NCBI GenBank assembly: GCA_963835065.1
Contig: CAWIEK010000020.1
Location: forward strand, 1-32,855
Origin: an uncultured Chthonomonadaceae bacterium
GTDB taxonomy: Bacteria > Armatimonadota > Chthonomonadetes > Chthonomonadales > Chthonomonadaceae
DNA length: 32,855 bases
Direction: 5' to 3'
Shown: one piece after another, positions 4,640 through 30,861 of the stretch
Layout of the letters: each line of letters begins with the position of its first letter
Numbering within the stretch: position 1 is the first letter of the stretch
Position numbers and translations under genes: made by a program
Notes under the pieces: generated by a model
The model's input: only the letters and a program-made list of their open reading frames with translations
What the model was told of the DNA's origin: nothing
Databases searched by the model: none

Positions 4640-7273
4640 ATGCAGAAAATCTACTCTTCTTTATCGTGTACGCTGCTATTTACGCTGCTTTGGAGCGGGC
4701 TGTTTGCAGGGCTTGCTTTTGCCGCGCCGCCTGCGCCCGTGACGGCAACGGAAGACGCCGCCCGCATTGTTATGGACAACGGCATCGCGCGACTGGAAGT
4801 TTCCAAAGCGAAGGGCAATATCGTGTCGGTTCGGTATCGGCACGACGGGCAGGATACGGAAATCAGCAAAACCATGTACACGTCGGCCAGCGCCGGTCCG
4901 ACGGATCGCAACGCGCCCCAGCCGCCGCGCGGCTCCATCCAAACGCAGCAAAATCGCCCGCCCCATCTGGCGCAAAATACGCCCGAAATCGCGGACGTTC
5001 AAATAGAAAGCGGCCCCAATCCGACGTTCCCCTTCCATACGGAAACGCACTACCTTCTAATGCGCGGTCAGAGCGGATTTTACGCCTATCAGATTTACTC
5101 GCGTACCGCCGACTTACCGGCAGCCACGATTGGCGAGGCGCGGTTCGTTATCAAAGGCTTGCCCGGCACGAGCGTTTTCACCGACCATGTTGTGGATGCG
5201 CAGCGTATGGGGCCGGTCAACACATCGCCCGTCGCGCAGCAGGTTTCGGACGCGACGTTTCTGCTTCAGGACGGCTCCATTTACACCAAGTACGACAATT
5301 CGGCGTTCATGGCCGACCACTATGTTCATGGCATGACAGGGCACGGCATCGGGCTGTGGATGCTCAACGCCAGCAACGAGTTCGTCAACGGCGGGCCGCT
5401 GAAACAGGAATTGACGGTACACGCCGACAACACCCTCCTCAACATGCTGCAAGGGGCGCACTTCGGTTCGGGCGTCCTGAACTTCAAGGCGGGCGAAACA
5501 TGGACGAAATTTTACGGCCCGTGTTTCGTGTATCTGAACAGTGGCGCGACCACGCAGGCGATGTATCAGGATGCGCTGCGCCGCGTGGAAACCGAACGCG
5601 CCCAATGGCCGTATGCGTGGGTCAGCCATCCCGCGTATCCCATTCTGCGCGGCAGCGTGACGGGGCAAATCAAACTCACGGACGGCACAAGCGCAAGGGG
5701 CGCGTGGATCGTTCTCGCGGCGGCAAGCGATTCGCCGCAAACGGATTGGACGCAGCAGGGCAAGGGCTATGAGTTCTGGACGCGGGCGGGTGCGGACGGC
5801 AGATTCACCATTCCCAAAGTGCGCCCCGGCGCGTACACGCTGTACGCCTGCGGCGCAAACCAGTTCGCGCAGTTCCACAAGGATGGGGTTACCATTCAGG
5901 CCGGGGAAACGAACACTCTGGGCGTCTTGGATTGGCAGCCCGTCACGCATGGCAAAACGCTGTGGCAGATCGGCGTGGCAGACCGGGGCACAACCGAGTT
6001 CCATGACGGCAACAATGTCCGTCACTTCGCCAACTACCTGCGCTACGCCAGAGATTTTCCCGGCGACGTGACGTTCACCATCGGCAAAAGCCGCGAAGAC
6101 CGGGACTGGAATTACGCGCAATGGACGTGGTACAGCAAGCGGCCTTACTGGGCGATTGATTTCGACCTGCCGCAATCGCAAACAGGCACAGCCACACTCA
6201 CGTTCGGCATTGCCGCTTCCAATCCTGCGCATGGCGGGTCGAACACCATTCAAATCAAAGTCAACGGGCGCGATGCGGGAACCTTGCATCTTGCCAAATC
6301 CGGCCCCGCCGCGTATCGCAGCGGCGGGCAGGACAGCCTGTACCGCGTGGAAACCGTCACGTTCGACGCCGCGTTGCTCAAAGCCGGAGCCAATGAAATC
6401 ACGCTCGGCCACGCCGACGCGCAGCCGCTTCCCACCCCGGAGGAGCAGAAAAAAGGGCAAGTAGGCGCGGTAATGTACGACGCGATCCGGCTGGAAGTGG
6501 AACCGAAGGAAGGCGAAGCAAAGACCACGCAGGAAAGCGGAAATTTGCCCGCGAATACGCGAAGATTGCCGACCCTGTTCCTCATCGGCGATTCGACAGT
6601 GAAGAACCATACGAAAGGCTTGGCGGGGTGGGGCGATTCGATTGGAGCGTGGTTCGATACGTCGCGCCTGCGCGTGGAAAACGAGGCGTTGGGCGGGCGC
6701 AGCAGCCGGACGTTTCTCACGGAAGGCTTGTGGGACAAGGTTCTCGCCAAAATGCAGCCGGGAGATTTCGTGCTGATGCAGTTCGGGCACAACGACGGCG
6801 GCAGCATCGCCACAAGTTACCGCGCCTCCCTGAAAGGCAACGGCGAGGAAACGCAGGAAGCGACGGACGCCAAAACCGGCAAGCAAGAAACCGTCCATTC
6901 CTATGGCTGGTACATGCGCCGCTATATCGCCGACGCGAAACGCAAGGGCGCAACCCCCATTGTGCTTTCCCTCGTGCCCCGCAACATCTGGAAACCGGAT
7001 AATACGATAGGCCGCGCGTCCAATGATTACGGCAAGTGGGCGCAGGAAGCCGCCCTGTCCGAAAACGTCGCCTTTGTAGACTTGAACGACATTGTAGCCA
7101 AGCATTACGAGGCGCTCGGCCCGGACAAAGTGAAGGCAATGTACTTTCCCGGCGACCACACCCATACCAATCAAGCGGGCGCGGAACTTAACGCGGCTTC
7201 GGTTGTGGAAGGCTTACGAATGCTCAAGAACTGTCCTTTAGCCCCATACCTGCGGGAGAAACTCCAGCATTAG
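4640..7273 (+). CDS. Rhamnogalacturonan endolyase (PL4) fused to a GDSL rhamnogalacturonan acetylesterase (CE12)
   Basis: Signal peptide; PL4-like motifs TKYD, NEFVNGGPLKQEL, GAHFG, WQIG and YDAIRLE; C-terminal SGNH blocks LIGDSTV, GRSSRTF, QFGHND and DHTH. Confidence 0.85.
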   Translation: MQKIYSSLSCTLLFTLLWSGLFAGLAFAAPPAPVTATEDAARIVMDNGIARLEVSKAKGNIVSVRYRHDGQDTEISKTMYTSASAGPTDRNAPQPPRGSIQTQQNRPPHLAQNTPEIADVQIESGPNPTFPFHTETHYLLMRGQSGFYAYQIYSRTADLPAATIGEARFVIKGLPGTSVFTDHVVDAQRMGPVNTSPVAQQVSDATFLLQDGSIYTKYDNSAFMADHYVHGMTGHGIGLWMLNASNEFVNGGPLKQELTVHADNTLLNMLQGAHFGSGVLNFKAGETWTKFYGPCFVYLNSGATTQAMYQDALRRVETERAQWPYAWVSHPAYPILRGSVTGQIKLTDGTSARGAWIVLAAASDSPQTDWTQQGKGYEFWTRAGADGRFTIPKVRPGAYTLYACGANQFAQFHKDGVTIQAGETNTLGVLDWQPVTHGKTLWQIGVADRGTTEFHDGNNVRHFANYLRYARDFPGDVTFTIGKSREDRDWNYAQWTWYSKRPYWAIDFDLPQSQTGTATLTFGIAASNPAHGGSNTIQIKVNGRDAGTLHLAKSGPAAYRSGGQDSLYRVETVTFDAALLKAGANEITLGHADAQPLPTPEEQKKGQVGAVMYDAIRLEVEPKEGEAKTTQESGNLPANTRRLPTLFLIGDSTVKNHTKGLAGWGDSIGAWFDTSRLRVENEALGGRSSRTFLTEGLWDKVLAKMQPGDFVLMQFGHNDGGSIATSYRASLKGNGEETQEATDAKTGKQETVHSYGWYMRRYIADAKRKGATPIVLSLVPRNIWKPDNTIGRASNDYGKWAQEAALSENVAFVDLNDIVAKHYEALGPDKVKAMYFPGDHTHTNQAGAELNAASVVEGLRMLKNCPLAPYLREKLQH

Positions 7274-7351
7274 AGCCTATCCCGATAGGCTTGGTATCCG
7301 CGTCCGCAGGACGCTTGCACTTTCCTGCCGGGTATTTTCAATGCCCGGCCT
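7273..7351 (-). repeat. Partial copy of the GAGCCTATCC/CCGGG-ATTGAAAAT-CCCGG MITE family
   Basis: Reverse-complement match to about 17222-17300; it supplies part of the TAG stop of the PL4 gene. Confidence 0.8.
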
Positions 7352-8427: not shown

Positions 8428-8645
8428 TAGCTTATCTTGCCGATACCAATGTCGCTACCCGGCGCGTCCTTACGCAAGACCCCGCTCATGGTGAGATTAA
8501 GCGCGCTGTAGATACACTGCTTCTGCGCGGCGAAACGGTTGTTATCAAAAATGCCCTTCTTCTGAAACTTAATCATCTCGATACCTGTCTACTAACAAAG
8601 AGAAACATCTTTGTTGAGGGATGTGCAGGAGAGCAAGGAAGTTGA
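8421..8645 (+). pseudogene. vapC: Truncated PIN-domain (VapC) toxin
   Basis: N-terminal YLADTNV motif and first helix up to GETVVI (~8546); the remaining PIN acidic residues are absent and AT-richer DNA follows. Confidence 0.7.
8564..8591 (+). promoter_or_regulatory. Putative ECF sigma (sigmaE-like) promoter for the HNH operon
   Basis: GAAACTT-N16-GTCTA about 30 bp before ATG 8621. Confidence 0.5.
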
Positions 8646-9638
8646 ATAGGAACAGAGAACGGAAAAAGCGGTTATACGATACATTCGCCGCAAATCTGGC
8701 GCTATATTGGGGCGACAGCAACGACCGATTTATTTGTCCGCTTTGCATGCGGCTTTTTGATCGTGATTCCATTGATCATCTCGATCTAGCGCATATTGTT
8801 CCCAATGCTCTCGGAGGTAGTAAAGTTACGCTAACCTGTAAGCAGTGTAATAATCGTATTGGTGAAGAGATTGAGTGTCATGAAGTAGAAGCGGCCCGTA
8901 TGGAACAAGCCTTCAAGAGCAAGGAGAGCAAGCCCATGCTAGGACGTATTCGGCTTCGCTATAATGGGCAAGAAAGTGGAAGCGTTGGCATTACCATGAA
9001 CGGTGTCATGGGTGATACTATGCCCGAGCTCTACGTAAAACCCGTTGATAAAATGTCTGATCCCGCTGAAATACAAAGAATTCATCAGATGCTCGAGCAG
9101 GCGGCGAAGAACGGCGGAGATTGGGGAATAGAACTTGAATGGCGCAACCGTGTTGACCCACACAGGGCACAACTCACGTATCTGCACATCGCTTATCTAT
9201 ACCTGTTTCACCAGTTCGGTTACGAGTGGACGCTCGACCCCTGTACTGTCCTGATACGGGAGCAATTTCAGCGGCACGGATGAGGAACTTATCAACGTCC
9301 GTCTATTAAAGGCAACTCCTGATCAAGAACACCCGCAAACGTGGGGAGTAAACATCATTTACGCTCCTGAAGAGGCACTTGGATTGTTGGTCACAGTTCC
9401 TCCTATGCAACATCTGGGAGCATGGGCAACCGTTTGGATGCCGCTATTCGGATGCAGTTACAATCCGCCAGCGACGTTTGCAGGCTCGTTTTCACTAACT
9501 TCACTTGCAGATTTACATTCGATGTTAAACGAATCTGATGCCAGGCTCAGAGGGCATCGTGTAATTACGGATGTAATCCGTCGAAAAGCGCCTGATTTGT
9601 TTGCCCGTCTGCAAAGTACGCAATCAGCGAGAACATGA
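8621..9638 (+). CDS. HNH endonuclease with a long C-terminal extension; frameshift near 9276
   Basis: CPLC...HIVPNALGG...TCKQCNN. Removing one base at ~9276 gives QRPDEELINV… and an open frame through ORF 9384-9638. Confidence 0.75.
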
Positions 9639-9656: not shown

Positions 9657-10808
9657 GTGGGACCGATAATCATCTTAGACAAGTCAGTGCTGCAATCTTT
9701 ATCTTTTGAGGAGATAAAATTCCTACGCCGTCACTACCTTGTTAATATTGTGCCTGTCCTCGTAATTGAAATTCTTGGAAACCTCAAGAAGTATGCCGAC
9801 GATGAAGCGCGTTCACAGGATATAGTAAAACAGCACGCAGACAAATTCAGTCCACTAGATTCTGTGGTAAATGGAAGCTACCAAGTTCTTGCGACAGCTT
9901 CCTTGTTAGGTGCTAAATTCGAGATGGACGGGCGACCCGTTGTAACAGGGGCTATTTCGTTTACTGATTCAAATGGCGACAGAGGAGTAGTGGTAGATGA
10001 ACGCCCTGAAGAGGAAGCCTTACGAAGGTGGCGGAGGGTCAGTTTACAGAAGCCGAGAAAACTCTTGCTCAACGTTGGCGGGATGTGAACTCGTAGCCTT
10101 GATCTAAAGGGTTTCCGAACCGAACTGTTGAAGGCGAATACGGATATTCCAAAGGTAAAGACCCTTGATGAGTTGAAAGTACAAGTTGACAATCTCCTCA
10201 GCGCGGAAAGTTCGCAATTGTTCTATTTGCAGTGGCTAATTGCTCGTCTTAACCTCCCGTTCCAACGTGCCACTATAGTGGCACGTTGGAATATAGGCCG
10301 GTTTACTTCCTTGCGTCACTTCGCTCCCTACGCTTTTCACTGTCTGCGGGTAGAAACCGCGTTCATGCTCGGTTTGATGCATGGAGTAATGAGCGGGATG
10401 ATTGCTGCACGTCCAACCAACAGAGTAGACTTGGAATATTTATTCTACCTTCCCTTCTGCCATGTATTTTCATCAGGCGATAATTTCCAAGGTCCTTTTT
10501 GTAAATTATTCTTGGCGGACTACCAACAATTCATTCCTGCAAGTGACCTCAAGACTGATCTTCACAATATAGCTACAGCATGGAAGGCTCTGACTGAAGA
10601 TGAGCAGAAGGCGCAGCGAAGAGAATACAGTTGCTATCCACCTGTGAACGCAACCTCCTTCACTCACCAAATGTGGTTGAAGCATATGAAGCCGTGGCGT
10701 CCAGGCATACATGATGTACAAATCAGCCCGGAACAGGAGCGAGTCATGTTAGAGCGGGCGCGAGCTGCCCAAGCAGCACTAAAAGGCAAAAGAGATAAGA
10801 CTACTTAG
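9657..10808 (+). CDS. Hypothetical protein with PIN-like motifs; apparently one gene with two compensating indels (~10034 and ~10088)
   Basis: GGAGG RBS with GTG start. ORFs 9657-10088 and 10128-10808 share a frame, and the alternative frame GQFTEAEKTLAQRWRDV bridges them. Motifs IILDKSVL and DLEYLFYLPFCHVFSSGD. Confidence 0.7.
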
Positions 10809-10834
10809 GGGCTGTGGTTTTTATCTTCCTGAAC

Positions 10835-10858
10835 GTAGGGGCGTTGCTTGCTGCGCCC
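10835..10858 (+). repeat. GTAG-type REP
   Basis: GTAGGGGCGTTGCTTGCTGCGCCC; reverse complement of the units at 23604-23716. Confidence 0.8.
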
Positions 10859-11008
10859 TTTTGCGCATTGCGCCCGCCGGGAAGAGAATAGATGTACAGC
10901 CCCAGGCAAGCGCCCCTCCCCGTTCCTCACACGATGCCAACAGCAACCATCCAGCGCAACTCCCGCAAAAATAAACAGAAAAAAAGAGCCAAACAACCCG
11001 AAAACAGC

Positions 11009-11036
11009 GAACCTTTTGCTCCGTTCCTCCTGTCTA
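11009..11036 (+). promoter_or_regulatory. Putative ECF promoter upstream of repeated element copy 1 and the macroglobulin gene
   Basis: GAACCTT…GTCTA (AAC-N19-GTCT), followed by ACAAGTGTCTACTA, which is shared with copy 2. Confidence 0.5.
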
Positions 11037-11121
11037 AATAGTACAAGTGTCTACTAACCAGACACAAAGGCTGAACGTTCGTAGTTCCTATCAACTATCA
11101 ACTATCAACTACTTACTCAGG

Positions 11122-11271
11122 AAAGGAGGTACAGGCCCATGTCCCACCCCTCCCGTTCGCCCTGACGCTTTCGAGGCCACGACGCCTCTCTCCTACAATT
11201 TGACACAACGAGACATCGGGCTGGAAGCGCTGCATTGCCAAGATTTCGACGATGACTCTACATATCCTTTT
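11122..11271 (+). ncRNA. Unassigned structured RNA / 8-codon uORF element, copy 1
   Basis: Ungapped match to 23285-23435 (-), with 9 mismatches over ~133 nt from the ATG. AAAGGAGG SD; ATG 11139 to TGA 11165 (MSHPSRSP). Confidence 0.55.
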
Positions 11272-11388
11272 TTCTATAGGCAGGTACTTTCAGTAGGCCG
11301 CGCTTGTGCCTCAGTAACCATCTTTGCGCGGTATCCGTCTAAACATCAACATTCACCCCGATTACATTGTTTAGAGGAATACCACGCC

Positions 11389-14300
11389 ATGCGACGTTTA
11401 CGACCTTCTTTCTATTCTCTGCTGCCCGCGTTCGGTATAACGACGGTGTTTGCCGGACTGTTTGCCACCTCTGCGCAGGCGCAAAACGCAAGGCGCGTGT
11501 TTGCGTTTCGGCGGGACAATACGCCTTCCACTTTTAACCGCAAGGATTTTGACGTTTCGCCGCTGGAAACGCGCGTGTTGGGACAGCGAACGTGGCTGCG
11601 GGGCGGGCCGGCTTCGCTGCGTATCCTTGTGGGCAACCATCTTACGGGCAAATCCGTGCCCGCGTCCGTGTCGCTTGGATTGGCGAAGATGGAAAACGGC
11701 AAGCCGGACGCCAACAGCCTGCCCCTGTACGCAGGGCAGACCAACGCGCTCGGCACAATGGACGCGCAGTTTCACGCGCCCAAAGTCGCGCCCGGTCCGT
11801 ATCAACTCACCATCAGCGTCAAGTCTGCGCTTGGCGAGGACACCATTACGCAGCCGATACAGATTGAAGAGTCCATGCAGTTGATGTTGACGGCGGACAA
11901 GCCCCTGTATCAGCCGGGACAGACGATGCACCTCCGCGCCCTCGCGCTGGATATGGCGACGCGGGAAGCGCTTGCCGATCAGCCGATTACGTTTGAAGTG
12001 GAGGATGCGCGGGGCAACAAGGTGTTCAAGAAACATCAAACGCTGTCGCGCTACGGTGTCGCGTCCGCCGATTTCATTCTGGCCGATGAAGTGAATATGG
12101 GAGCGTTTACCCTTCGCGCTATTTTGCCGACCGGGGAAACCGAAAAGAAGGTGCGGGTGGAGCGCTACGTCCTGCCCAAGTACAAAATCGCCATCACGAC
12201 GGACAAGCCGTACTATCTGCCCGGCGAAGAGGTGAAGGGAACGGTCAAGGCGACGTACTTTTTCGGCAAGCCGGTGGGGGATGCGCAGGTCACGGTTGCC
12301 ATCAATACCTTCGATGTCGGCATGACCAAACTGGCGGAACTGAAAGACAAGACCGACCCGATTGGCGTGTACACCTTCCGCTATACCCTGCCCACTTCGT
12401 TTGTCGGGCAGCCGTTCGCGCAGGGCAAGGCGCAGGTTGAGTTTGCCGCCACCATCAAGGACAAGGCCGACCACAAGCAGGAAGCGCATCAAAGCGTACC
12501 CGTTGTCAAAGAGCCGGTTTCGGTTGTCGTCGTGCCGGAACATCGCGTGCTGGTCCCCAACGTGGAAAACCGGGTGTACATCGCGGCGGCTACGCCCGAC
12601 GGGACGCCGCTCCAAAAGTGCCGCGTGTTCGTGTACCGGGGCAAGCCGCAGCCGCTTCATGGCGCGAGGGATCAGCGGGGCTATGACCTGCAAACCGACG
12701 AGTTGGGGCTGGCGACGTTTACATTCCGACGCCTCGCCGGACGAGAAAACCGGTGTCGAGTGGACGATGGAAGTGACGGACAAGGCGGGGCATACGGGCG
12801 TGGGAACCGTAAGCCTGCAAAACGCGGGCGGGCAGGACGGCCTGATTTTGCGCTCCGATAAAACCATCGCCAAAGTGGGCGAACGCCTGAATTTGTCCGC
12901 GCTGTCGTCCGTCAAGGGCGGAACCGTTTACTTCGATGTGATCCGCAACAAGCAGACGATTGTGACGCGGGCGGAAAACGCGAACGGCGGCCAGGCGAAT
13001 CTTCTGCTTCCCCTCACGCACGATATGGTGGGAACGCTGCAAATCCGCGCCTACAAAATCCTGCCCGACGAGAACATCCTCCGCGATTCGCGGACGCTGA
13101 TCGTCACGCCCGCCGATGATTTGAATATCCACGTCACGGCGGACAAAGCGCAGTACAAACCGGGCGGGGAAGCCGTACTGAAGTTTGCCGTGCAGGACGC
13201 GCAAAAGCATCCCGTACAGGCGGCAATCGGGCTTGCGGTTGTGGATGAAAGCGTGTTCGCTCTTTCGGAATTGCAGCCGGGGCTTGAGCGCGTTATCTTC
13301 ACGCTGGAAAAAGAGTTGATGGAGCCGAAGTACGAACTGCACGGCCTGACGCCTTCCAGTCTGATGCAGCCCAACCCGGTTCAATTTCAGCGCGAGGATG
13401 AGCGACAGCGCGCCGCTGCCCTGATTCTGGCTGCCGCGCCCGAACCCGCTAACTTCGATATTCGCGTGGATACGTTCGCGCAAAAATGGGCGAAAGTGGC
13501 CGTAAAAACCATTCAGTACATGATGGAAGCCAACCGCAAAATCGTCAACGCCGCGCAAAAGTACAAAGCCGATACCCACACTTCACTGACGGCGGAAGAG
13601 GGCGCACCTTATCTGGTCAGCAAAGGCTACCTGCGGGAAAGCGACCTGCGCGATCCGTGGGGACATGCGTACAAAGTGAACATGATGGGCGGCAAGAACT
13701 TTGACAACAACTATTTCACTCTCAGCAGCGCGGGGCCGGACGGCAAGTGGAATACCCCGGACGATCTCGCCAACGTATCCATGTACGGCTGGAATGACGC
13801 TAATAGAACTCGTTCGCGCGGGAGGAGAGGCGCAGCGCAAGGCTTTCTCGACGGAATATCGCCACAGGATATTTTCGCGCTGGATTCGGACAACAGCCTG
13901 ATAGTGGAGGCATTGGAAAAAGAGATGCCGCAGGCGAACAGGGGATTGGGAGCAGGCGGCGGTTTTGGCGGCGGCAGAGTGTTCAATGCCCCGGGAGCAG
14001 GAGCGCCGAGGCCGCTGATGCTGATGGCGAAAGCCAAAATGGACGACGCCAAAAAAGACAAAACGGAAACGGTAACTGTCGGCGCAGGCGGCAGTGACGC
14101 GCCCCGCGTCCGCTCGTTCTTCCCCGAAACCATGTACTGGAACCCCGCCCTGATTACGGATGAGCAGGGAATCGCGCAACTCACGGTTCCGATGGCCGAC
14201 TCGATTACGACGTGGCGGTTGAGCCTGCTTGCCAATTCCACGCGGGGGCAGTTGGGCAGTACGACCACACCCCTGAAAGTGTTTCAGGACTTCTTTGTGG

Positions 14301-16207
14301 ACATTGACCTGCCGGTTTCGCTAACGCAGCATGACCGTGTGGACGTTCCGGTTGCCATTTACAACTATCTGGCTGCCCCACAGCAGGTAACATTGACCTT
14401 GAAGCAGGAGCCGTGGTTCGCGCTGCAAGGCAGGGCAAGCCAAACGGTTCAGGTGGCAGCCAATTCCATCAGCGTCGTATATTATCCGCTCACGGCGAAC
14501 GCTATCGGCCAGCATAGTTTGGAAGTGACGGCGAAAGGCAGTAAATTGTCGGACGCTATGCGCCGCGAAATCGCCGTCACGCCGGATGGCAGATTGCTGG
14601 AAACAACCATTAATGACCGTCTGGAAGGCCGGGCGGAAAAATCGGTCACGTTTGCCGCTAACAGTTTGGAGGGCGCGAGCAGTCTGTGGGTGAAACTGTA
14701 CCCCGGCGCGTTCAGTCAGGTCGTGGAGGGTCTGGACGGTGTGCTGCGGATGCCCAACGGCTGCTTCGAGCAGACAAGTTCCACCACGTACCCCAACCTG
14801 CTCGTGCTGGACTATCTGAAGAAAACCAAGCGCATCAACCCCGAACTGCAACTGAAAGCCGAAGGGTACGTCAACATCGGCTATCAGCGATTGGTTACGT
14901 TCGAGTGCAAGAATGGCGGCTTTTCGTGGTTCGGGAATGAGCCTGCCCATCAGGTGCTGACCGCGTATGGCCTGTTGGAATTCAGCGACATGGCGAAGGT
15001 GCATGACGTAGACCCGAACGTGATTGCCCGAACACAGCAATGGCTTGCGGGCAAACAGCAGGCGGACGGCTCGTGGGAAGAAAAAACGCAGGGCATCGCG
15101 GAAGGCATCATCAACCGGCAAACCGGCGCTCTGCGCACAACGGCGTACATCGCGTGGGCATTAGCGGAAAGCGGCTACACCGGCCCGCAGTTGACAACCG
15201 GCGCGGCGTATGTCAAAGCGCATTTAGAAGAAGCCAAAGACCCGTACACGCTGGCCGTCATTCTCAACCTGCTCACCAGACTGGAGCGCGACAGCGACAC
15301 AACTACCAAAGTCGCCAACGCCTTAATTGCGCTTGCGAAAACAGCGGACAAGGACGCCTACTGGCAGACCGACACGCAAACCTTTACCGGAGCAAAGGAA
15401 CGGGGCGCGGATTTGGAAACAACGGGACTGGCCGCTTACGGGCTGTGCAAGTGGGGCCATAATGCCGCATTTGCCAACAAAGTCCTGACGCATCTGGTGC
15501 AAAGCAAGGACAGTTTCGGGACGTGGGAATCCACGCAGGGAACCGTCTGGTCTATGAAATCCCTCCTGTTCGCCAGCCAGAACGGCGTCGGGAGCGGCAA
15601 GGGCAAAGTGACCATTCTCGCCAACGGACAAAAGGCAGGCTCGTTCGCAATCACGCCCGAAGACAGCGACGTGATGCGGCAAATCAGCCTCGCGGAACAT
15701 CTCAAAGCCGACGCCAACGCGATTACATTGGAATACGAGGGCGACGGGTCGCTTCTGTACCAGATCGTCGGCAGATGCTACGTGCCGTGGAGCCAAGCCG
15801 GACAGCCGCAGCCCGGACAGGAACCTATGTCCATCAAGGTCGCTTACGACAAAACCACTCTGGCGCAGGACGACACCGCAACCGTCACCGTCAGCATCCA
15901 CAACAACACAAACGCAGTGGCGGAAATGCCGCTTGTGGATGTGGGCGTACCGCCCGGTTTCACCGTGAACCCGGAAAAACTGGAAGAGGCGGTAACGGCG
16001 AAAACCATCAGCAAGTACACCGTCGCCGCCCGCCAGATCATCGTGTACATGGAAAAACTGGAACCGGGTCAGACCGTCACCCTGACCTACCAGATCAAGG
16101 CCAAGTACCCGATCAAAGCGCGAACGCCCCTGAGCAAAGTCTACCCCTACTACAACCCGGAAAAAGTCGCCGTGTCCGCCCCGCAGGACATTCTGGTACG
16201 GAAGTAG
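11389..16207 (+). CDS. Alpha-2-macroglobulin family protein (thioester); frameshift near 12727
   Basis: Signal peptide, MG-domain motifs DKPLYQPG and YVLPKY, VRSFFPETMYW, DSITTW, thioester GCFEQ and C-terminal YYNPE. The two ORFs join on removal of one base. Confidence 0.9.
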
Positions 16208-16232
16208 ACGCGGGGTTGAACATACCCGCAGT

Positions 16233-16355
16233 GCCGGGGATTGAAAATCCCCGGCAACACAAAACAAGCGTCCTTACGGACGCGAATTCTCCAAATCAAA
16301 ATTCCCGCGTCCGCAGGACGCTTGCACTTTCCTGCCGGGGATTTTCAATCCCCGG
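16233..16355. repeat. REPIN-like palindromic element (same family as 7273 and 17208)
   Basis: GCCGGGGATTGAAAATCCCCGGC ... GCCGGGGATTTTCAATCCCCGG with inner GCGTCC/GGACGC hairpins, between convergent genes. Confidence 0.85.
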
Positions 16356-17185
16356 AACCTTGTAAACCGTTCCCGTTCCCACGCATCAATTATTTGGCGG
16401 GAAAGGCTGAGGGGCGGGGGAAGCGGGGGCAGGTCGCGTACATCGAACCATGCGGCGTGATCCAGTTCTTCCTCGTCCAAGCGAATGTCGCCGCTCACGT
16501 AACGCGCCGTGAAGCCGACCATCAGTTGATGCGGGAAGGGCCAGGGCTGACTGCCTTCGTACACGATGTCCGTAACCTGGAACCCGACTTCTTCCTCCAC
16601 TTCGCGCCGAACGCACTCTTCCAGCGACTCGCCCGGCAGCACGAAACCGGCCAAAATGCTGTACCGCGTTCCCCATCCCGGCTTGTGCGCCAGCAATACC
16701 CTGTCCCCGCCGTCATGCACGAGGGCGAGGACGGCGGGGCTGACCTGCGGGTAACGGTCATGCCCACAGTTCGGACAATGGCGCATCCACTCCTGCCGCA
16801 TCAGTTCCGTCGCGCTTCCACATACCGGGCAAAATTGGCTGACGCGCTGCCAGTGCAGAATTTGCGCAGCGTAGCCTGCAATCTGCCATTCGGTTTCGCT
16901 TATTCGCCCGTACAGGCTGCGCAGATTGGCAGTTTGCCAGCCGTCGGGAAGCGGCATGTCTTCGGACACTTCGCAGGTTACATACGTCGTCTCCGCAACC
17001 CTGCCAAGCGTGAGAGGCGTAAACGCCGCAAGCGCCTGCCGGACAACAGCATTGTCCGGCAGGAGTTCCACGCCATCCCCGGCTGCCTGAACCAACACAT
17101 CGGAGCCGCGCAAGGGCAGCCAGCGTATCGGGCCGACAGGCAAATCCGACACATACACCCGTTCAAAATCGGGATACAAAGACAT
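16274..17185 (-). CDS. nudC: NAD(H) diphosphatase (Nudix)
   Basis: Zinc ribbon CPVCG…CPNCG, Nudix box GFVLPGESLEECVRREVEEEVG and the SQPWPFP signature. Confidence 0.93.
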   Translation of the reverse strand: MSLYPDFERVYVSDLPVGPIRWLPLRGSDVLVQAAGDGVELLPDNAVVRQALAAFTPLTLGRVAETTYVTCEVSEDMPLPDGWQTANLRSLYGRISETEWQIAGYAAQILHWQRVSQFCPVCGSATELMRQEWMRHCPNCGHDRYPQVSPAVLALVHDGGDRVLLAHKPGWGTRYSILAGFVLPGESLEECVRREVEEEVGFQVTDIVYEGSQPWPFPHQLMVGFTARYVSGDIRLDEEELDHAAWFDVRDLPPLPPPLSLSRQIIDAWERERFTRFRGLKIPGRKVQASCGRGNFDLENSRP

Positions 17186-17207
17186 ACGCGCTGTTCTTTC
17201 TGCCTTA

Positions 17208-17300
17208 GAGCCTATCCTCATAGGCCGGGCATTGAAAATACCCGGCAGGAAAAATCAAGCGTCCTGCGGACGCATATACCGCGCCTATTGGGATAGGCTC
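17208..17300. mobile_element. 93-bp MITE with terminal inverted repeats and a TTA direct repeat
   Basis: TTA-GAGCCTATCC…GGATAGGCTC-TTA, with an internal REP-like hairpin. Confidence 0.7.
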
Positions 17301-17373
17301 TTATGCGCAGGGGCCAGCCCGTCGGGCCAAGATGCGGTAACAATAGGGTTTTCTATGCCGGGTTACACGACAA

Positions 17374-21141: not shown

Positions 21142-22095
21142 GTGCCGCCTGCTCCTGTATTATCTCCGACGCTGCCGTTTCTCTCGTTTTCGCGGGAGGA
21201 GTGGGCGCAGTTGCGGGCGTCTACGCCGCTGACGCTGACCGAAGCGGATTTGAACGCCCTGCGCGGCATCAATGAGCGCATTTCGTTGCAGGAAGTGGAA
21301 GCCATTCACCTGCCGATTTCGCGCCTGCTGAATCTGTATGTCACGGCCACGCAGCAACTGCATCGCGTCACGTCCACGTTTTTGGACAGCCCCGCGCCAA
21401 AAGTGCCGTATGTGATCGGGTTGGCGGGCAGTGTGGCGGTGGGCAAAAGCACGACCGCCCGTATCCTGCAAGCCCTGCTGTCGCGCTGGCCCGCGCATCC
21501 GCATGTGGATTTGGTGACGACGGACGGCTTTTTGTACCCGAACGCGACCCTCAAAGAGCGCGGCATTATGCACCGCAAAGGCTTTCCCGAAAGTTACGAT
21601 TTGCGGCGACTGGTGCGCTTTGTGCGCGACGTGAAATCCGGCGGCGAACCTGTGACGGCTCCCATCTATTCGCACCTGCGCTATGACATTGTGCCGGACA
21701 AATTGCAGACCGTAAACCAGCCCGACATTCTGATTCTGGAAGGCTTGAACGTTTTGCAGCGCGGCGAGTCGAGTGGCGAATCGTCGCGCGTTCTGGTGTC
21801 CGACTTTTTCGATTTTTCGCTGTACGTGGACGCGGAAGAAGCCGACATCGAGCAATGGTTTCTGGAGCGTTTCTTCCGCCTGCGCGAAACGGCCTTTCAA
21901 GACACGGCTTCGTTCTTCCACCACTACGCCGAATTGTCTGCGGAACAAGCCGAAGATACCGCCCGCGACATTTGGAAGCGCATCAACGGCGTAAACCTGC
22001 GCGAAAACATCCTCCCCACCCGCGAACGCGCCAACCTCATCCTGCAAAAGAGCGCAAGCCACGCCGTTCAGCGCGTGTGGCTGCGCAAACTCTAA
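21142..22095 (+). CDS. coaA: Type I pantothenate kinase
   Basis: [33 protein letters not shown] and NILPTRERA. Confidence 0.96.
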
Positions 22096-22179
22096 TTTTC
22101 CACATAAACGCAGCCTCTTTGAAATTCAAGCAGGAATTGTCAGCCTGTCCATGCAATAGATACGGCAATTACTGTTTCG

Positions 22180-22284
22180 TTGTCTTGAACCATGATTTCA
22201 CATGATTGTTGTGATTACCATGAGGACGTGCCTCCTAAAATCATGTTAATCTCATAAATCATGTGAAATCATGGTTCAAGACAA
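22180..22284. repeat. Palindromic element with perfect 28-bp arms
   Basis: TTGTCTTGAACCATGATTTCACATGATT / AATCATGTGAAATCATGGTTCAAGACAA. Confidence 0.85.
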
Positions 22285-22315
22285 GGAACTGCATCTTTAT
22301 CCCCGGAGGACTGCT

Positions 22316-23224
22316 ATGAACCTGTTCCTGCGCTGTTCTGCTCTGCTTGCCGTTTTCTTTTGCTGTGGTATTGTTCCCTTGTGTGCGCAGCAGAAGGAAG
22401 ACGGCGGCAAAATCGTTGTGGAAAACGATGTGGAGTACGCCAATCCCGACAATCAGCATTTGATGGTGGATATGGCGCGGCCTGCGGAGGGGAAGGGGCC
22501 GTTTCCCGCCGTGCTGTGCATTCACGGGGGCGGGTTTCGGGCGGGAGACAGACACGGCTATGACGGGCTGATACGGGAATTTGCCAGGCGGGGCTATGTG
22601 GCCGCAACGGTGGAGTATCGCCTGACGCCCAAGTACCCGTTTCCCGCTGCGATTCACGATGTGAAAGCGGCTGTGCGCTGGCTGCGGGGCAATGCCGCCA
22701 AATACCACATTGACCCGGAGCGCATCGGCGTGACGGGCGGTTCGGCGGGCGGGCATCTGGCGCAGTTTTTGGGCGTGACAGCGGACGTTGCCGAATTCGA
22801 GGGCAGGGCAGAAAACGAGGGCAACTACGATCAGTCCAGCCGCGTGACGTGCGTGGTCAACAATTACGGGCCGAGCGATTTCACCAAATCCTACGGCAAA
22901 AGCGTGGACGCGGCGGAAGTGCTGCCCATGTTTTTGGGCGGCAATCTGGAGCAGGCGCGGCAAAAGCATATTCTCGCCAGTCCGCTCTACTGGGTCACGC
23001 CCCACGCCGCGCCGACCCTGTGCGTTCACGGAACCAAAGACAATTATGTGGCTTACGAGCAGGCCGTGTGGCTTGTGGACAAATTGAAAGCGGCGGGCGT
23101 GGAAGCCGAACTGCTCACATTGGAAGGCGCGGGACACGGTTTCAGCGGCGAAGCCGCGCAAAAAGCCGACGCCGCCATGTTCGCTTTCTTTAACAAACAT
23201 CTCAAACCGCAGCCGTCGCTATGA
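22316..23224 (+). CDS. Secreted alpha/beta hydrolase (family IV / BD-FAE-like esterase)
   Basis: GGAGG RBS, signal peptide, HGGGF, GGSAGG nucleophile elbow, HGTKD and GHGF. Confidence 0.9.
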   Translation: MNLFLRCSALLAVFFCCGIVPLCAQQKEDGGKIVVENDVEYANPDNQHLMVDMARPAEGKGPFPAVLCIHGGGFRAGDRHGYDGLIREFARRGYVAATVEYRLTPKYPFPAAIHDVKAAVRWLRGNAAKYHIDPERIGVTGGSAGGHLAQFLGVTADVAEFEGRAENEGNYDQSSRVTCVVNNYGPSDFTKSYGKSVDAAEVLPMFLGGNLEQARQKHILASPLYWVTPHAAPTLCVHGTKDNYVAYEQAVWLVDKLKAAGVEAELLTLEGAGHGFSGEAAQKADAAMFAFFNKHLKPQPSL

Positions 23225-23284
23225 ACAAAACTGTTAAAGCGGGGAGGGTTTCAGCGCATTTGCATGCAGCCGTGAGGGCGTTGG

Positions 23285-23435
23285 AAAAAGGATATGTAGA
23301 GTCATCGTCGAAATCTTGGCAATACAGCGCTTCCAGCCCGATGTCTCGTTGTGTCTGATTGTCGAAGAGAGGCGTCGTGACCTCAAAAGCGTCAGGGCGA
23401 ACGGGAGGGTTGGAACATAGGTATGCACCTCCTTT
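23285..23435 (-). ncRNA. Unassigned structured RNA / 8-codon ORF element, copy 2
   Basis: Match to 11122-11271; SD, ATG 23418 to TGA 23392 (MFQPSRSP); no downstream gene on this strand. Confidence 0.55.
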
Positions 23436-23461
23436 GCGGAATAGTAGACACTTGTGCTTTA

Positions 23462-23490
23462 TAGACTGCGTTTGTGGGGCAAAGGTTTCC
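23462..23490 (-). promoter_or_regulatory. Putative ECF promoter for element copy 2
   Basis: GGAAACCTT…GTCTA (AAC-N18-GTCT) on the minus strand. Confidence 0.5.
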
Positions 23491-23603
23491 TGTTTTCGCG
23501 TTGTGAGGCACTTTTTTTTAGATATTTTATGCGGCATGGCTGCTGTTGGGATTGCGTGGGAACGGGGAGAGCAGCGGGCAAAAAACCGACACCACCTGAA
23601 GTT

Positions 23604-23716
23604 GGGTGCAGCAAGCAACGCCTCTAAAGTTGGGCGCAGCAAGCAGCGCCCCTACGAACGCAAGCGCAGCAAGCAGCGCCCCTACGAGCGCAAGCGCAGC
23701 ACGCAACGCCCCTACG
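23604..23716 (-). repeat. Four tandem GTAG-type REP units
   Basis: GCGCAGCAAGCAGCGCCCCTAC-like units at 28-30 bp period, immediately before the lactate permease start. Confidence 0.85.
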
Positions 23717-23735
23717 AGCGCAAGGAAGCGTTTCT

Positions 23736-25421
23736 ATGATCTATACCCAAAACTACCATCCGCTTTCCTCGGTTCCGCTGTGTATTCTGCTGGCCGCTCT
23801 GCCCGTGCTGGTGCTGTTCGCGCTGCTGGTGGTCAAACGCGCCCCTGTGCCGATTGCCGCTGCGGGTGGAGCGTTGGCGGCGTTTGTGGTTGCCATTGCG
23901 GTTTATGGGATGCCCGTTGGCATGGCGACGATGGCGTTTATGAATGGGGCTTTGTTCGCCCTGCTGCCTATCGGGTATGTGCTGGCGGGGGCGATGCTGC
24001 TGTACAACATCACGGTGGAAACGGGCTGTTTTGCGCGGATTAAAGAGTCGGTTGCGGGCTTGTCGCCGGATCATCGGCTGCAGGCCGTGCTGATCGCGTT
24101 TTGTTTCGGGGCGTTTTTGGAGGGCGCGGCGGGAGCGGGTACGCCCGTTGCCATCTGCGCGGCCATGCTGGTCGGGCTGGGGTTCAAGCCATTTCAGGCG
24201 GCGTTTTTGTGTTTGATTGCCAATACCTCGCCCGTTGCGTATGGCGGGTTTGGGACGCCCCTGCTCACGCTGCAAGGCGTCACGGGACTGGACATTCGCG
24301 CTCTGAGCCACATGGCGGGCAATCAACTGCCCATTCTGTCGTGCATCATTCCCCTGTGGCTGGTGCGCAGCATGTGCGGCTGGCGGGAAACGCGGGAAGC
24401 CCTGCCTGCCATTGTGGTCGCGGGCGGCTCGTTCGCGCTGTGCCAGTTCCTATTCGCGCACTCGCCCTATTACGCGCTGACCGATCTGGCGGGCGGCTTG
24501 ATTTCGCTTGTGCTGACGGGCGGGTTTTTGCGCATCTGGAAACCCCGGCGGACGTGGCGCTACGAGGCGCGTAATCTGGAGGGGCGCGAAGACGAGATTG
24601 CCGCCGTACACCAGATTGGCGAAAACATCGCGCCCCGCGTCAGTCTCAAAGCAACGCTGTCGGCGTGGATGCCGTTTATCGTGCTGTGCGTGCTGATGGT
24701 GGGTATCGGAACCAACAAAGCAAGGCTGGACAGCCTGCAAATCGGGCCGATCCGGGGCCTGTACGAACTGCATCTGCACGGACTGGACAGGCAGGTACAG
24801 CGCACTCCGCCCGTTGTGGAAACGAACACGCTGGAGCCTGCCGTCTTCAAATTGAACTGGATTACCACGCCCGGAACTTCCGTTCTGCTGGCTGTCCTGC
24901 TCGTATTGAAACTGCTGAAAGTAACGCGCCTGCAATTTCGCGCCGCCCTGAAACGCACCACGCTGCAAATGCGGGTTCCCATTCCCACCATTATCTTCAT
25001 GCTCGGTCTGGGTTCCATTACGCGGCTTGGGGGATTGGACGCGACATTGGGCATGGCGTTCAAGAACACGGGCGTCTTTTATCCGTTTTTCGCGGCCCTG
25101 CTCGGCTGGCTCGGCGTGTTTCTGACGGGCACGGACGCGGGCAGCAACGCCCTGTTCGGCAGCCTGCAAAAGATCACGGCTTTGCAGTTGCATCTCAGCC
25201 CGATTTTGATTTGCGTGGCGAACTCATCCGGCGGCGTAATGGGCAAAATGATTGACGCGCAATCCATCTGCGTCGCCACCTCGGCAACGGAACAGGTCGG
25301 CACGGAAGCCGACATTTTCAAAGTCGTGCTGCGTCACAGCATCGTTCTGGCCGCGATCATGGGCCTGATCGTCCTGCTGCAAGCCTACGTCTACCCCTTT
25401 ACCTTGATGGTTCCGCATTGA
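23736..25421 (+). CDS. lctP: L-lactate permease
   Basis: FGAFLEGAAGAGTP, ANTSPVAYG, FLTGTDAGSNALFG and GGVMGKMI; many TM segments. Confidence 0.92.
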   Translation: MIYTQNYHPLSSVPLCILLAALPVLVLFALLVVKRAPVPIAAAGGALAAFVVAIAVYGMPVGMATMAFMNGALFALLPIGYVLAGAMLLYNITVETGCFARIKESVAGLSPDHRLQAVLIAFCFGAFLEGAAGAGTPVAICAAMLVGLGFKPFQAAFLCLIANTSPVAYGGFGTPLLTLQGVTGLDIRALSHMAGNQLPILSCIIPLWLVRSMCGWRETREALPAIVVAGGSFALCQFLFAHSPYYALTDLAGGLISLVLTGGFLRIWKPRRTWRYEARNLEGREDEIAAVHQIGENIAPRVSLKATLSAWMPFIVLCVLMVGIGTNKARLDSLQIGPIRGLYELHLHGLDRQVQRTPPVVETNTLEPAVFKLNWITTPGTSVLLAVLLVLKLLKVTRLQFRAALKRTTLQMRVPIPTIIFMLGLGSITRLGGLDATLGMAFKNTGVFYPFFAALLGWLGVFLTGTDAGSNALFGSLQKITALQLHLSPILICVANSSGGVMGKMIDAQSICVATSATEQVGTEADIFKVVLRHSIVLAAIMGLIVLLQAYVYPFTLMVPH

Positions 25422-25937: not shown

Positions 25938-25987
25938 GTACTTCCACTCTGTGTCTTTAAGGGTCTGTAAATCTATAACTTCCCGGA

Positions 25988-26023
25988 GGGCACAACATAG
26001 GACACAACATGTTGTGCCCCTAC
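25988..26023 (-). repeat. GTAG-type REP variant
   Basis: GGGCACAACAT…ATGTTGTGCCC followed by CTAC. Confidence 0.7.
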
Positions 26024-26126
26024 AATCGGGAACTTATACTTTTACGAACCCTAAGCAGAGGGGCGCTGAAAGTTCGTAGTTCCTGCATCCCTATCCACTA
26101 CGAATTATCACCTATCAACGGTTTAG

Positions 26127-29532: not shown

Positions 29533-30073
29533 ATGGCAAAAACGAAGGATACCGCGCGCTACGAGACGCTGATATTGCCGCACCTGAACGCCGCCTATAA
29601 TCTGGCGCGCTGGATGACGCGCAACGATCAGGATGCCGAGGACGTGACACAGGAAGCCTGCCTGCGCGCCTGCAAGTTCTTCGACAGTTTTCGTGGCGGG
29701 GATAGCCGCGCCTGGCTGCTGCGCATCGTACGCAATACCTGCTACACCTGGCTGCAGCAAAACCGGGCGCATGAGCTGACGCTTTCATTTCACGAGGAGA
29801 CATTCGACCTGCCGCATGAGGCGTATAACCCGGAGACGATTGTCCTTCAGCAGGCGGACGCGGAGCAGATACGGCGGGAAATGGAAGCCTTGCCGGTAGA
29901 GTTTCGGGAGGTACTGATTTTGCGGGAACTGGAAGATTTTTCGTATCGCGAGATCGCGCAGATCGCCGACATTCCGCTTGGAACAGTGATGTCGCGCCTT
30001 GCGCGGGGCCGCAAGCGACTTCAGGAAGCGCTGGGGGTTCAGCCTTCCTCGACGGCAGGGAGGCGCGGCATGA
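29533..30073 (+). CDS. ECF RNA polymerase sigma factor; reads in frame into the anti-sigma factor as assembled
   Basis: DAEDVTQE, AWLLRIVRN and SYREIA…GTVMSRLARGR. The TGA at 30071-30073 is in the +1 frame, so this end is inferred. Confidence 0.85.
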
Positions 30074-30861
30074 ACTGTAAGGAAGCGAAAGGCTATCTGC
30101 ACGGCTATATGGACGGCGAACTCGACCTTGTGCGCAGTCTCGCCATTGAAACGCATCTGCAAAGCTGCCCGGATTGCGGACAGGAATACCGGAACCTGCA
30201 GTTGCTGCGCGGCGCGATGCGCGCGGCTTCGCTGAACTATACGCCCCCGGATCGGCTGCGGCAGAAATTGGAAGCCGAAATCAGCCGAAGGGACGGCAAT
30301 CGCTTCTCATGGGTTCGCTTCCCGCAGTTCAAGCTGCCGCCTAATGCGCGGCGATGGCAAAGTGTCGGCTTTACGACGGCAGTAGCGTGTGTATGCCTGC
30401 TGCTGGGGTTCATTGTCCGGCAGGGTCGTCCCGCCGCGTCGGAGAGCCTGCTGTCTCAGGAAGTGATCGCGTGTCATGTGCGCTCGCTGATGGTGAATCA
30501 TCTGGCGGATGTCGCCTCATCCAATCAGCATACCGTGAAGCCCTGGTTCAGCGGTAAACTGGATTTTGCCCCCCCCGTTGTTGACCTGGCCTCAGACGGT
30601 TTTCCGCTCAAGGGTGGACGGCTGGAATACGTCGCCGAACGTCCGGCAGCCGCGCTGGTATATGCGCGTCAGAAGCATACGATCAATCTGCTGATCTGGC
30701 CGGACAAGGCGGAAAGCAGCCGGGAACTTCACCCGGAAACCCGGCAGGGCTTCCATCTGGTTCATTGGGCGCAGGGCGGCATGACCTTCTGGGCCATCTC
30801 CGACCTGAACAGCGCGGAATTGCAGGACTTTGCCGCCAAAATCCAACGCGCCACTCCCTGA
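30070..30861 (+). CDS. Zinc-finger transmembrane anti-sigma factor
   Basis: GGGAGG RBS, MNC…HLQSCPDC (HxxxCxxC), one TM segment, HTVKPWF and LKGGRLEY. Confidence 0.88.
   Translation: MNCKEAKGYLHGYMDGELDLVRSLAIETHLQSCPDCGQEYRNLQLLRGAMRAASLNYTPPDRLRQKLEAEISRRDGNRFSWVRFPQFKLPPNARRWQSVGFTTAVACVCLLLGFIVRQGRPAASESLLSQEVIACHVRSLMVNHLADVASSNQHTVKPWFSGKLDFAPPVVDLASDGFPLKGGRLEYVAERPAAALVYARQKHTINLLIWPDKAESSRELHPETRQGFHLVHWAQGGMTFWAISDLNSAELQDFAAKIQRATP

Follow-up and report, generated by a model that had tools for sequence, protein, structure and literature searches.

Intact, mutually spaced copies of a mini-gene with a micro-ORF and a conserved predicted RNA fold in one genus of Chthonomonadaceae

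The window analysed here, a stretch of 32,855 nucleotides from an uncultured Chthonomonadaceae bacterium, contains two copies of a small element, at 11122-11271 on the plus strand and at 23285-23435 on the minus strand, which align without gaps (BLAST E 3.5e-56) and reach covariance-model scores of 159 and 150 bits. The gapless alignment and the nine mismatches that the original prediction placed after the ATG were borne out, with five C>T and one T>C among the latter, and the other parts that it listed were found at both copies: a Shine-Dalgarno sequence (SD), the short ORFs MSHPSRSP and MFQPSRSP, an AAC-N19/N18-GTCT box and the shared ACAAGTGTCTACTA. The genome to which the window belongs (G000; 8.0 Mb, 71 contigs, 57% GC, 92% complete) was studied together with two congeners, G001 and G002. 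The features of both copies, in window positions, are the following.

10834..10960, plus strand: upstream shell remnant of copy 1, which includes a 5' segment common to many copies
10834-10858, plus strand: GTAG-type REP within the shell remnant of copy 1
10878-10903, plus strand: decayed look-alike of an ISAzo13-MITE end at copy 1 (a likeness by eye, unscored for this copy)
11009..11037, plus strand: ECF-like promoter of copy 1, with -35 GAACC at 11009-11013 and -10 GTCTAA at 11032-11037
11049..11055, plus strand: second -10-like box of copy 1 in the initially transcribed region, a candidate sigma-dependent pause site
11088..11111, plus strand: tandem repeat of a heptamer, an insertion in the variable 5' leader, outside the core
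11122..11130, plus strand: Shine-Dalgarno of copy 1, able to pair over 9 nt with the 16S rRNA 3' end of the same genome
11139..11165, plus strand: micro-ORF of copy 1, MSHPSRSP-stop
11173..11188, plus strand: hairpin P1 of copy 1, starting 10 nt beyond the first stop-codon base
11210..11258, plus strand: long irregular hairpin P2 of copy 1, with an invariant 15-nt tip at 11226-11240
11261..11274, plus strand: conserved CATA and pyrimidine-rich 3' tail of copy 1, where the conserved core ends
11314..11343, plus strand: separate promoter-like site of the macroglobulin gene, outside the element
23461..23489, minus strand: ECF-like promoter of copy 2, with -35 at 23484-23489 and -10 at 23461-23466
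23443..23449, minus strand: second -10-like box of copy 2
23427..23435, minus strand: Shine-Dalgarno of copy 2
23392..23418, minus strand: micro-ORF of copy 2, MFQPSRSP-stop
23369..23384, minus strand: hairpin P1 of copy 2
23299..23347, minus strand: hairpin P2 of copy 2, with the invariant tip at 23317-23331
23285..23296, minus strand: 3' tail of copy 2; a convergent esterase gene ends about 62 nt away

Upstream of copy 1 lie a gene for an HNH_5 endonuclease domain (8621-9283) and a gene without Pfam match (10128-10808), both surrounded by short inverted-repeat elements. Downstream, an alpha-2-macroglobulin gene (11389-16207) with an internal T2SS-G-like segment is split into two frames, at 11389-12861 and at about 12767-16207; the contigs of two related organisms have one base fewer near 12730, so the split reflects either an assembly error or a strain-specific frameshift. 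Further along the window, at 29533-30861, an ECF sigma factor shares a single frame with a zinc-finger anti-sigma domain, which is either a natural fusion or a frameshift artefact. At copy 2, a 151-nt contig from a sequencing run guessed to be RNA joins the 3' end of the element to the end of the esterase gene, and is uninformative on transcription or strand.

The position of copy 1 had suggested in the original prediction a possible leader of the macroglobulin gene. A cis-acting leader, that is, an attenuator or a riboswitch with a leader peptide controlling the downstream gene, would suit a layout of leader peptide plus hairpin and the 115 nt that separate copy 1 from the macroglobulin start. 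Nevertheless, a promoter-like site that belongs to this gene itself lies between it and the element, and its motif is also kept upstream of the G002 orthologue, where the element is absent, and no covarying terminator/antiterminator pair was seen. Across the genome, the next downstream gene is on the same strand for 61/161 copies and on the opposite strand for 100/161, at a median of 87 nt, a distance to be taken as approximate since the gene calls come from a custom hexamer model that missed some genes, such as the first macroglobulin ORF. A leader function is in consequence largely refuted, and we consider it most improbable. What did stand was the idea of a stand-alone unit with a promoter-like site and a micro-ORF. 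The neighbours are unrelated and mostly convergent: no recurring gene family and no common function were found among them, and 37 copies lie between convergent genes against 17 expected.

This arrangement raises the alternative of an antisense or 3'-end regulator, in which stress-induced transcription would enter the end of the convergent neighbour. In its favour, besides the frequent and close opposite-strand genes, coding sequence within 4 kb downstream is biased against the strand of the element (0.42), but the bias is gone beyond 4 kb, which leaves a 25-kb zone around the copies (see below) unexplained, and it would also be expected if promoters that fire into sense genes were selected against. 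Given moreover the sizeable share of same-strand neighbours and their lack of a common function, such a regulator seems very unlikely.

The element had been described as present twice, which proved wrong. A genome-wide BLAST gave hundreds of matches in G000, and an nhmmer profile of the core delimited 162 full-length copies, every one of which spans 110-122 of the 122 core positions, whereas a maximal-sensitivity search of the same genome gave no further element fragment at E<1. The cores are distinct in 157 of the 162 cases, with a mean identity of 90%. A covariance model built from 46 copies and applied to congeners and phylum detected 13 matches in G001 and, in G002, 46 full ones along with a fragment, and did not find the element in 39 other genomes of the family and 150 of the phylum, many of them incomplete. 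Titled records carrying the element pattern come from uncultured Chthonomonadaceae. Among the genomes searched, the element is a genus-restricted mini-gene. Contig depths summed over the core exceeded those of the flanks several hundredfold in each of two independent metagenomes, as would be expected if related organisms carry many copies; this speaks against an artefact of assembly. Viral contigs gave no element match, and the plasmids and phages searched matched the heptamer repeat but not the element. Four matches in metagenome contigs, lying in other contexts, were judged by inspection to be due to chance. In a genome collection, 10 of 37 pattern-matching stretches came from other taxa; nine of these (L078 among them) look like chance matches and were excluded from the alignment. 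The tenth, L097, carries a real element core from its ATG on, fused to unrelated DNA of high GC content; the contig is assigned to another phylum and represents either a chimeric assembly or a rare transfer.

As for known RNA families, Rfam 15 gave no match at gathering score across the window and none at E<=10 for 10950-11400, so the earlier view of an RNA of no known family holds; likenesses to guanidine-II, ZTP, T-box and ribozyme motifs were dropped for want of an Rfam match. The literature searched yielded no description of the element, and a related motif may sit in the supplementary lists of PMC11109978 and similar surveys, where multi-copy motifs of inconsistent orientation are classed as mobile or repeat candidates; the phylum of the Chthonomonadaceae is absent from the main text of PMC11109978.

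The putative promoter is almost private to the element, as 141 of the 164 ECF-like promoter motifs of the genome lie within 260 bp upstream of a copy. Its spacer measures 16-18 nt in 139/161 distinct copies, and phased A-tracts precede it. The ECF label follows the general consensus of such promoters and is tentative, and some congener subfamilies show other promoter-like motifs ahead of the same core. One subfamily of G001 (L007, L010, L013, L016, L019) has a longer structured leader and a 15-16-codon ORF starting at GTG, CTG or TTG, with a premature stop in one copy; its promoter region is different and bears a motif that we take to resemble an NrdR box. A second -10-like box follows the -10 by 15-21 nt in 142 of 152 promoter-bearing copies. 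Promoter-proximal repeats of this kind make the polymerase pause in a sigma-dependent manner, as shown for sigma70 and sigma38, most alternative sigma factors being described as unexplored in this respect (PMC5389655). The element resembles these promoter-proximal pause elements in having a -10 copy within the first 20 transcribed bases, but its promoter is ECF-like and pausing here would be an extrapolation from the sigma70 and sigma38 cases (PMC5389655).

The micro-ORF has 8-11 codons in G000 and ends in x-x-Pro-stop. All 162 copies keep the Pro codon and the stop 9-12 nt before P1, a distance of exactly 10 in 157 of them. An in-frame ATG is found in 155/162 copies, with ORF lengths that vary in steps of three, while five copies are frameshifted by +/-1 base and two start with ATT. 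The ORF ends are RSP in 115 copies, RPP in 25, HPP in six, LPP in five and RAP in four. Among 43 copies from the congeners, the stop codon is TAA in 25, TGA in 17 and TAG in one, Pro(-1) is kept in 41 with all four codons used, and Arg(-3) in 35, also through four codons. Since the stop alternates and both residues are each spelled by four codons, what is constrained at the end of this predicted ORF is the peptide, and codon usage thereby indicates a constraint at the protein level. The C-terminus is an uncommon one, as out of 5,676 predicted proteins 8.5% end in Pro and 0.6% in R-x-P. The N-terminal part, conversely, varies freely. Long reading frames across the core were also considered and rejected; in the +1 frame 14/162 copies have a stop-creating change, and changes fall mainly at first and second positions. 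A bacterial SECIS or a programmed +1 frameshift was discarded too, because UGA is not required, as the TAA stops of the congeners indicate.

Type I toxins are hydrophobic peptides of about 18-60 residues, paired with an antisense RNA. The peptides of the element have 8-11 residues in G000, up to about 16 in G001, and are mostly polar and Pro-rich, which led us to reject, on the peptide side, a type I toxin-antitoxin system. A likeness of some of them to Pro-rich antimicrobial peptides was left unused, as the motif occurs 0 times in the text searched of PMC7544508. A closer parallel is offered by arrest and leader peptides. A C-terminal Pro at the stop is associated with slow termination and tmRNA tagging, and the leader peptides TnaC and PheL end in Pro-UGA (PMC3082878), whereas in the RAPP/RxPP arrest peptides ApdA, ApdP and SecM the R-x-P occupies the P site with a Pro (or Gly) codon in the A site (PMC10951233). 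As in these systems (PMC10951233, PMC3082878), position -3 is Arg or His and position -1 Pro, counted from the pause position, and the short SD-led ORF of the element precedes an RNA structure; unlike in the RAPP peptides (PMC10951233), a stop and not a Pro or Gly codon follows the R-x-P in all intact copies.

An alternative is a dosage device acting in trans, in which the many copies would under stress absorb ribosomes, release factors or the ECF sigma, or else release a short Pro-rich peptide, their spacing being incidental. Nearly all ECF-like motifs belong to copies, the SD is near-perfect, Pro before a stop is a known context of slow termination and tmRNA tagging (PMC3082878), and no gene family is linked to the element. 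We regard this proposal as fairly unlikely, though, because it has no need for dispersed, self-avoiding copies, the congeners manage on 13-46 of them, some subfamilies use other promoter types and the N-terminal part of the peptide is free to vary. Beyond the SD, moreover, no long complementarity to 16S or 23S rRNA was found, the longest being 10 nt.

The suggestion of a structured RNA was upheld by the covariation analysis of 46 homologues, among which the predicted hairpins P1 and P2 are conserved and covary. In both stems together, 88% of cells are paired with 26 two-sided changes; none of 500 shuffles reached as high a pairing and slid controls gave 36-54%, although two of five covariation measures were not above shuffles. 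Since the sequences are kin, coming from three genomes of one genus and few subfamilies, the two-sided changes are not independent of each other. One-sided changes keep the P1 and P2 pairs through G-U on the plus strand, which points to that strand as the RNA, and single-sequence energy minimization yields the same two hairpins, with an ordinary stability (z of -0.65 for the core and +0.59 for the whole, against shuffles). The covarying stems P1 and P2 make up, in sum, a conserved predicted fold, crowned in P2 by an invariant 15-nt tip whose 15-mer occurs 162 times in G000, always within copies. The further pairings proposed at the outset fared unevenly: GAGGC/GCCTC is paired in 99% of cells, while CGCTTTC/GGAAGCG (63% paired, with 100/500 shuffles as high) and the GCCC/GGGC pseudoknot (72%, without any two-sided change) fail across the 46 homologues, and the pairing of the 5' SD with the 3' pyrimidines is weak (72%, against 69% for a version slid by +1). 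An IS110 bridge RNA, which goes with a cognate DEDD recombinase and has loops complementary to donor and target DNA, was discarded, with no PF01548 match in G000 and the invariant 15-mer confined to copies, and so was a retron or other RT-linked RNA, as neither of the two reverse transcriptase loci of G000 matches the element. These two genes (Pfam RVT_1; L110:132-1614 and L111:683-2113) presumably correspond, by eye, to an RT behind a Cas2-like ORF and to one resembling myxobacterial retron RTs.

The element has travelled with transposons. Members of subfamily B are enclosed in a shell measuring about 460 bp, whose inverted ends, of ISAs1 type, are 19 bp long; both ends are present in 15/162 copies, the window copies having no complete shell. 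In eight of the 15 shelled copies the 10-bp target duplications match at 9-10 of 10 bases, whereas cross pairs reached eight or more in 0/210 cases; a generic scan gave no target-site duplication in the other 147 copies. The same TIR bounds transposase-coding ISAs1 (PF13808) elements of G002, while no ISAs1 transposase was found in G000 at its 92% completeness. One subfamily has thus moved as cargo of an ISAs1-type MITE. ISAzo13 (PF07592) ends flank other copies: a right end lies downstream of 30/162, in a single orientation, against 1/400 background windows, and ends on both sides were found in four, whereas 124/162 score no ISAzo13 end, the window copies show remnants only and none of the 13 copies of G001 scores one. 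Full ISAzo13 elements are present in G000. The cargo is dissimilar to the interiors of both ISAs1 and ISAzo13, these insertion sequences acting as vehicles only, and while shells decay, the cores remain whole. A plain MITE with a decaying IS-derived interior was accordingly rejected, given the absence of interior similarity and of fragments and the constraint at codon and pair level. MITEs with promoters or small RNA products are known from other bacteria, the Correia elements among them. The Coxiella QMITE1 and QMITE2 (PMC5896051) likewise have dozens to hundreds of intergenic copies of 300-470 bp, with a subset showing TIRs and target duplications, an internal promoter and the same loci in relatives. 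Our element departs from such promoter or small-RNA MITEs in that the same cargo, unrelated to the transposon interior, sits in two unrelated shells or in none, and in that it is never fragmented, has an SD-led ORF constrained at the protein level and its copies avoid each other over about 25 kb.

Many copies are old. At 8 of 28 loci of the G002 group with a traceable flank, one match of mere shell similarity having been excluded, G000 has a copy at the matching place, and a related strain (metagenome run X1) has one at both window loci; no metagenome contig skips a whole copy, nor was an empty site found in them for either window copy. Copies at matching loci carry cores that are genome-specific, and four gametes occur in 533 of 666 pairs of variable sites, with linkage falling with distance, so the family evolves in concert by recombination. 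Recombination among copies, as read from this variation, could keep them alike without selection acting on each one. In a separate matter, copy 2 with at least 1.5 kb on each side (22000-24900) is near-identical to a region of G000:C8 near 7419, and a similar duplicated pair is G000:C1:4560 / C28:5033; these repeats represent either segmental duplication or strain redundancy of the assembly.

The element could consequently be viewed as a selfish or neutral MITE passenger, whose promoter, ORF and fold would be kept alike by gene conversion and whose close copies would be purged as they recombine. True TIRs with target duplications in one subfamily, the single-orientation ISAzo13 right ends, the strong recombination signal, the genus-only distribution with a tenfold range of copy number and the enrichment between convergent genes, which many repeats show, would all agree with it. 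We still find this account unlikely, since the same cargo, unlike the interior of any of its transposons, occurs in two unrelated shells or in none, whole cores stay within decaying shells and the constraint on peptide and base pairs extends across diverged subfamilies.

The distribution of the copies along the chromosome bears on the same question. Only 4 of 105 gaps between neighbours are below 10 kb, against 26.2 +/- 4.2 expected for random intergenic sites, and the coefficient of variation of the gaps is 0.74 against 0.99 expected; seven other repeat families show no such deficit of short gaps, and among the 35 gaps of G002 none is shorter than 13.7 kb. Between -15 and +10 kb of a copy there are 0.06-0.26 other copies per 50 kb, and about 1 beyond these limits, with 9/162 copies inside the zone of another one against 42% of intergenic sites. 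Empty ends, on the contrary, are found within these zones (ISAs1 5/10, ISAzo13 8/31), and because they are not clearly excluded and most copies lack ends, exclusion follows the cargo. Each copy is thus surrounded by an exclusion zone, reaching about 15 kb upstream and 10 kb downstream, which affects copies but not empty shells. The only close pair (G000:C30:36972 and 38064; 1.1 kb apart, direct) consists of two diverged copies with an ATT start.

The spacing has, moreover, a polarity. Convergent neighbours are separated by a median of 21 kb, direct ones by 36 kb and divergent ones by 48 kb (strand permutation p=0.0006), and with context-matched nulls the effect had p=0.027 without exclusion and 0/600 with hard exclusion, being weaker when only contigs longer than 150 kb are considered (p=0.04, or 0.07 with three groups). 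The medians of G002 follow the same order. Leading and lagging strands carry 34 and 48 copies, an unconvincing bias. Neighbouring copies are no more alike than random pairs, apart from a weak core signal (p=0.026); as neighbours are not sisters, local hopping fails to explain the spacing. The purging of close copies proposed for a passenger does not predict these patterns either, because inverted neighbours are also excluded, and convergent and divergent pairs differ, and deletion by recombination accounts for neither. In Tn7 target immunity a resident copy repels new copies over tens of kb, and a resident element from which other copies are kept away is what we also observe, but immunity in Tn7 rests on transposase-bound ends (PMC4321384), whereas exclusion here tracks the cargo. 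In the literature searched, we found no description of an exclusion tied to cargo instead of transposon ends.

Altogether, we tentatively favour, at somewhat less than an even chance, a selected mini-gene with 162 intact and spaced copies, some of them in MITE shells, which would give rise to a ribosome-loaded RNA acting in cis on the surrounding DNA. In such a model, built on sequence patterns, an ECF sigma holoenzyme would start an RNA of 150-250 nt, with a possible pause of the polymerase where the second -10-like box lies. The SD would recruit a ribosome, which would be slow to leave the Pro-stop; given the fixed 10-nt spacing, the leading edge of the ribosome would come to lie at about P1, so that P2 with the invariant tip could bind a partner. 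As the most speculative step, the paused complex of polymerase, ribosome and RNA might delimit a topological or tethering domain of about 25 kb around the locus, within which a second copy would be harmful or useless. Transcription twin domains of 23-25 kb were measured at the rRNA operons of E. coli (PMC9071471), but those are nearly symmetric, while the RNA of the element would be about 150-250 nt long and its zone is asymmetric, the scale alone being matched.

High-copy bacterial repeats are usually filed as selfish, and they are clustered or random and include many broken copies. The element contrasts with them in its lack of broken copies, its constraint on peptide and RNA, its changes of vehicle and its directional spacing. 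A further step, possible although doubtful, would be to see in it an element of a new kind that tiles the chromosome, namely an RNA gene that is translated and holds a ribosome, with a polar action in cis over about 25 kb, which would have recruited at least two transposon families and come near saturation at one copy per 40-50 kb. If the spacing does reflect a local function, it would amount to a genetically encoded division of a bacterial chromosome into domains by transcription-translation complexes; if the element is selfish, there would still be an exclusion effect bound to cargo and not to transposon ends. In either case, the 162 natural variants are available for the study of termination stalling at Pro-stop and of pausing with ECF sigma factors. 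The window also contains other repeats, namely an empty ISAzo13-type MITE with a REP-like interior (25950-26060) and three members (7267-7351, 16231-16358 and 17186-17322) of another family with a palindromic core, which has 141 randomly spaced sites in the genome.
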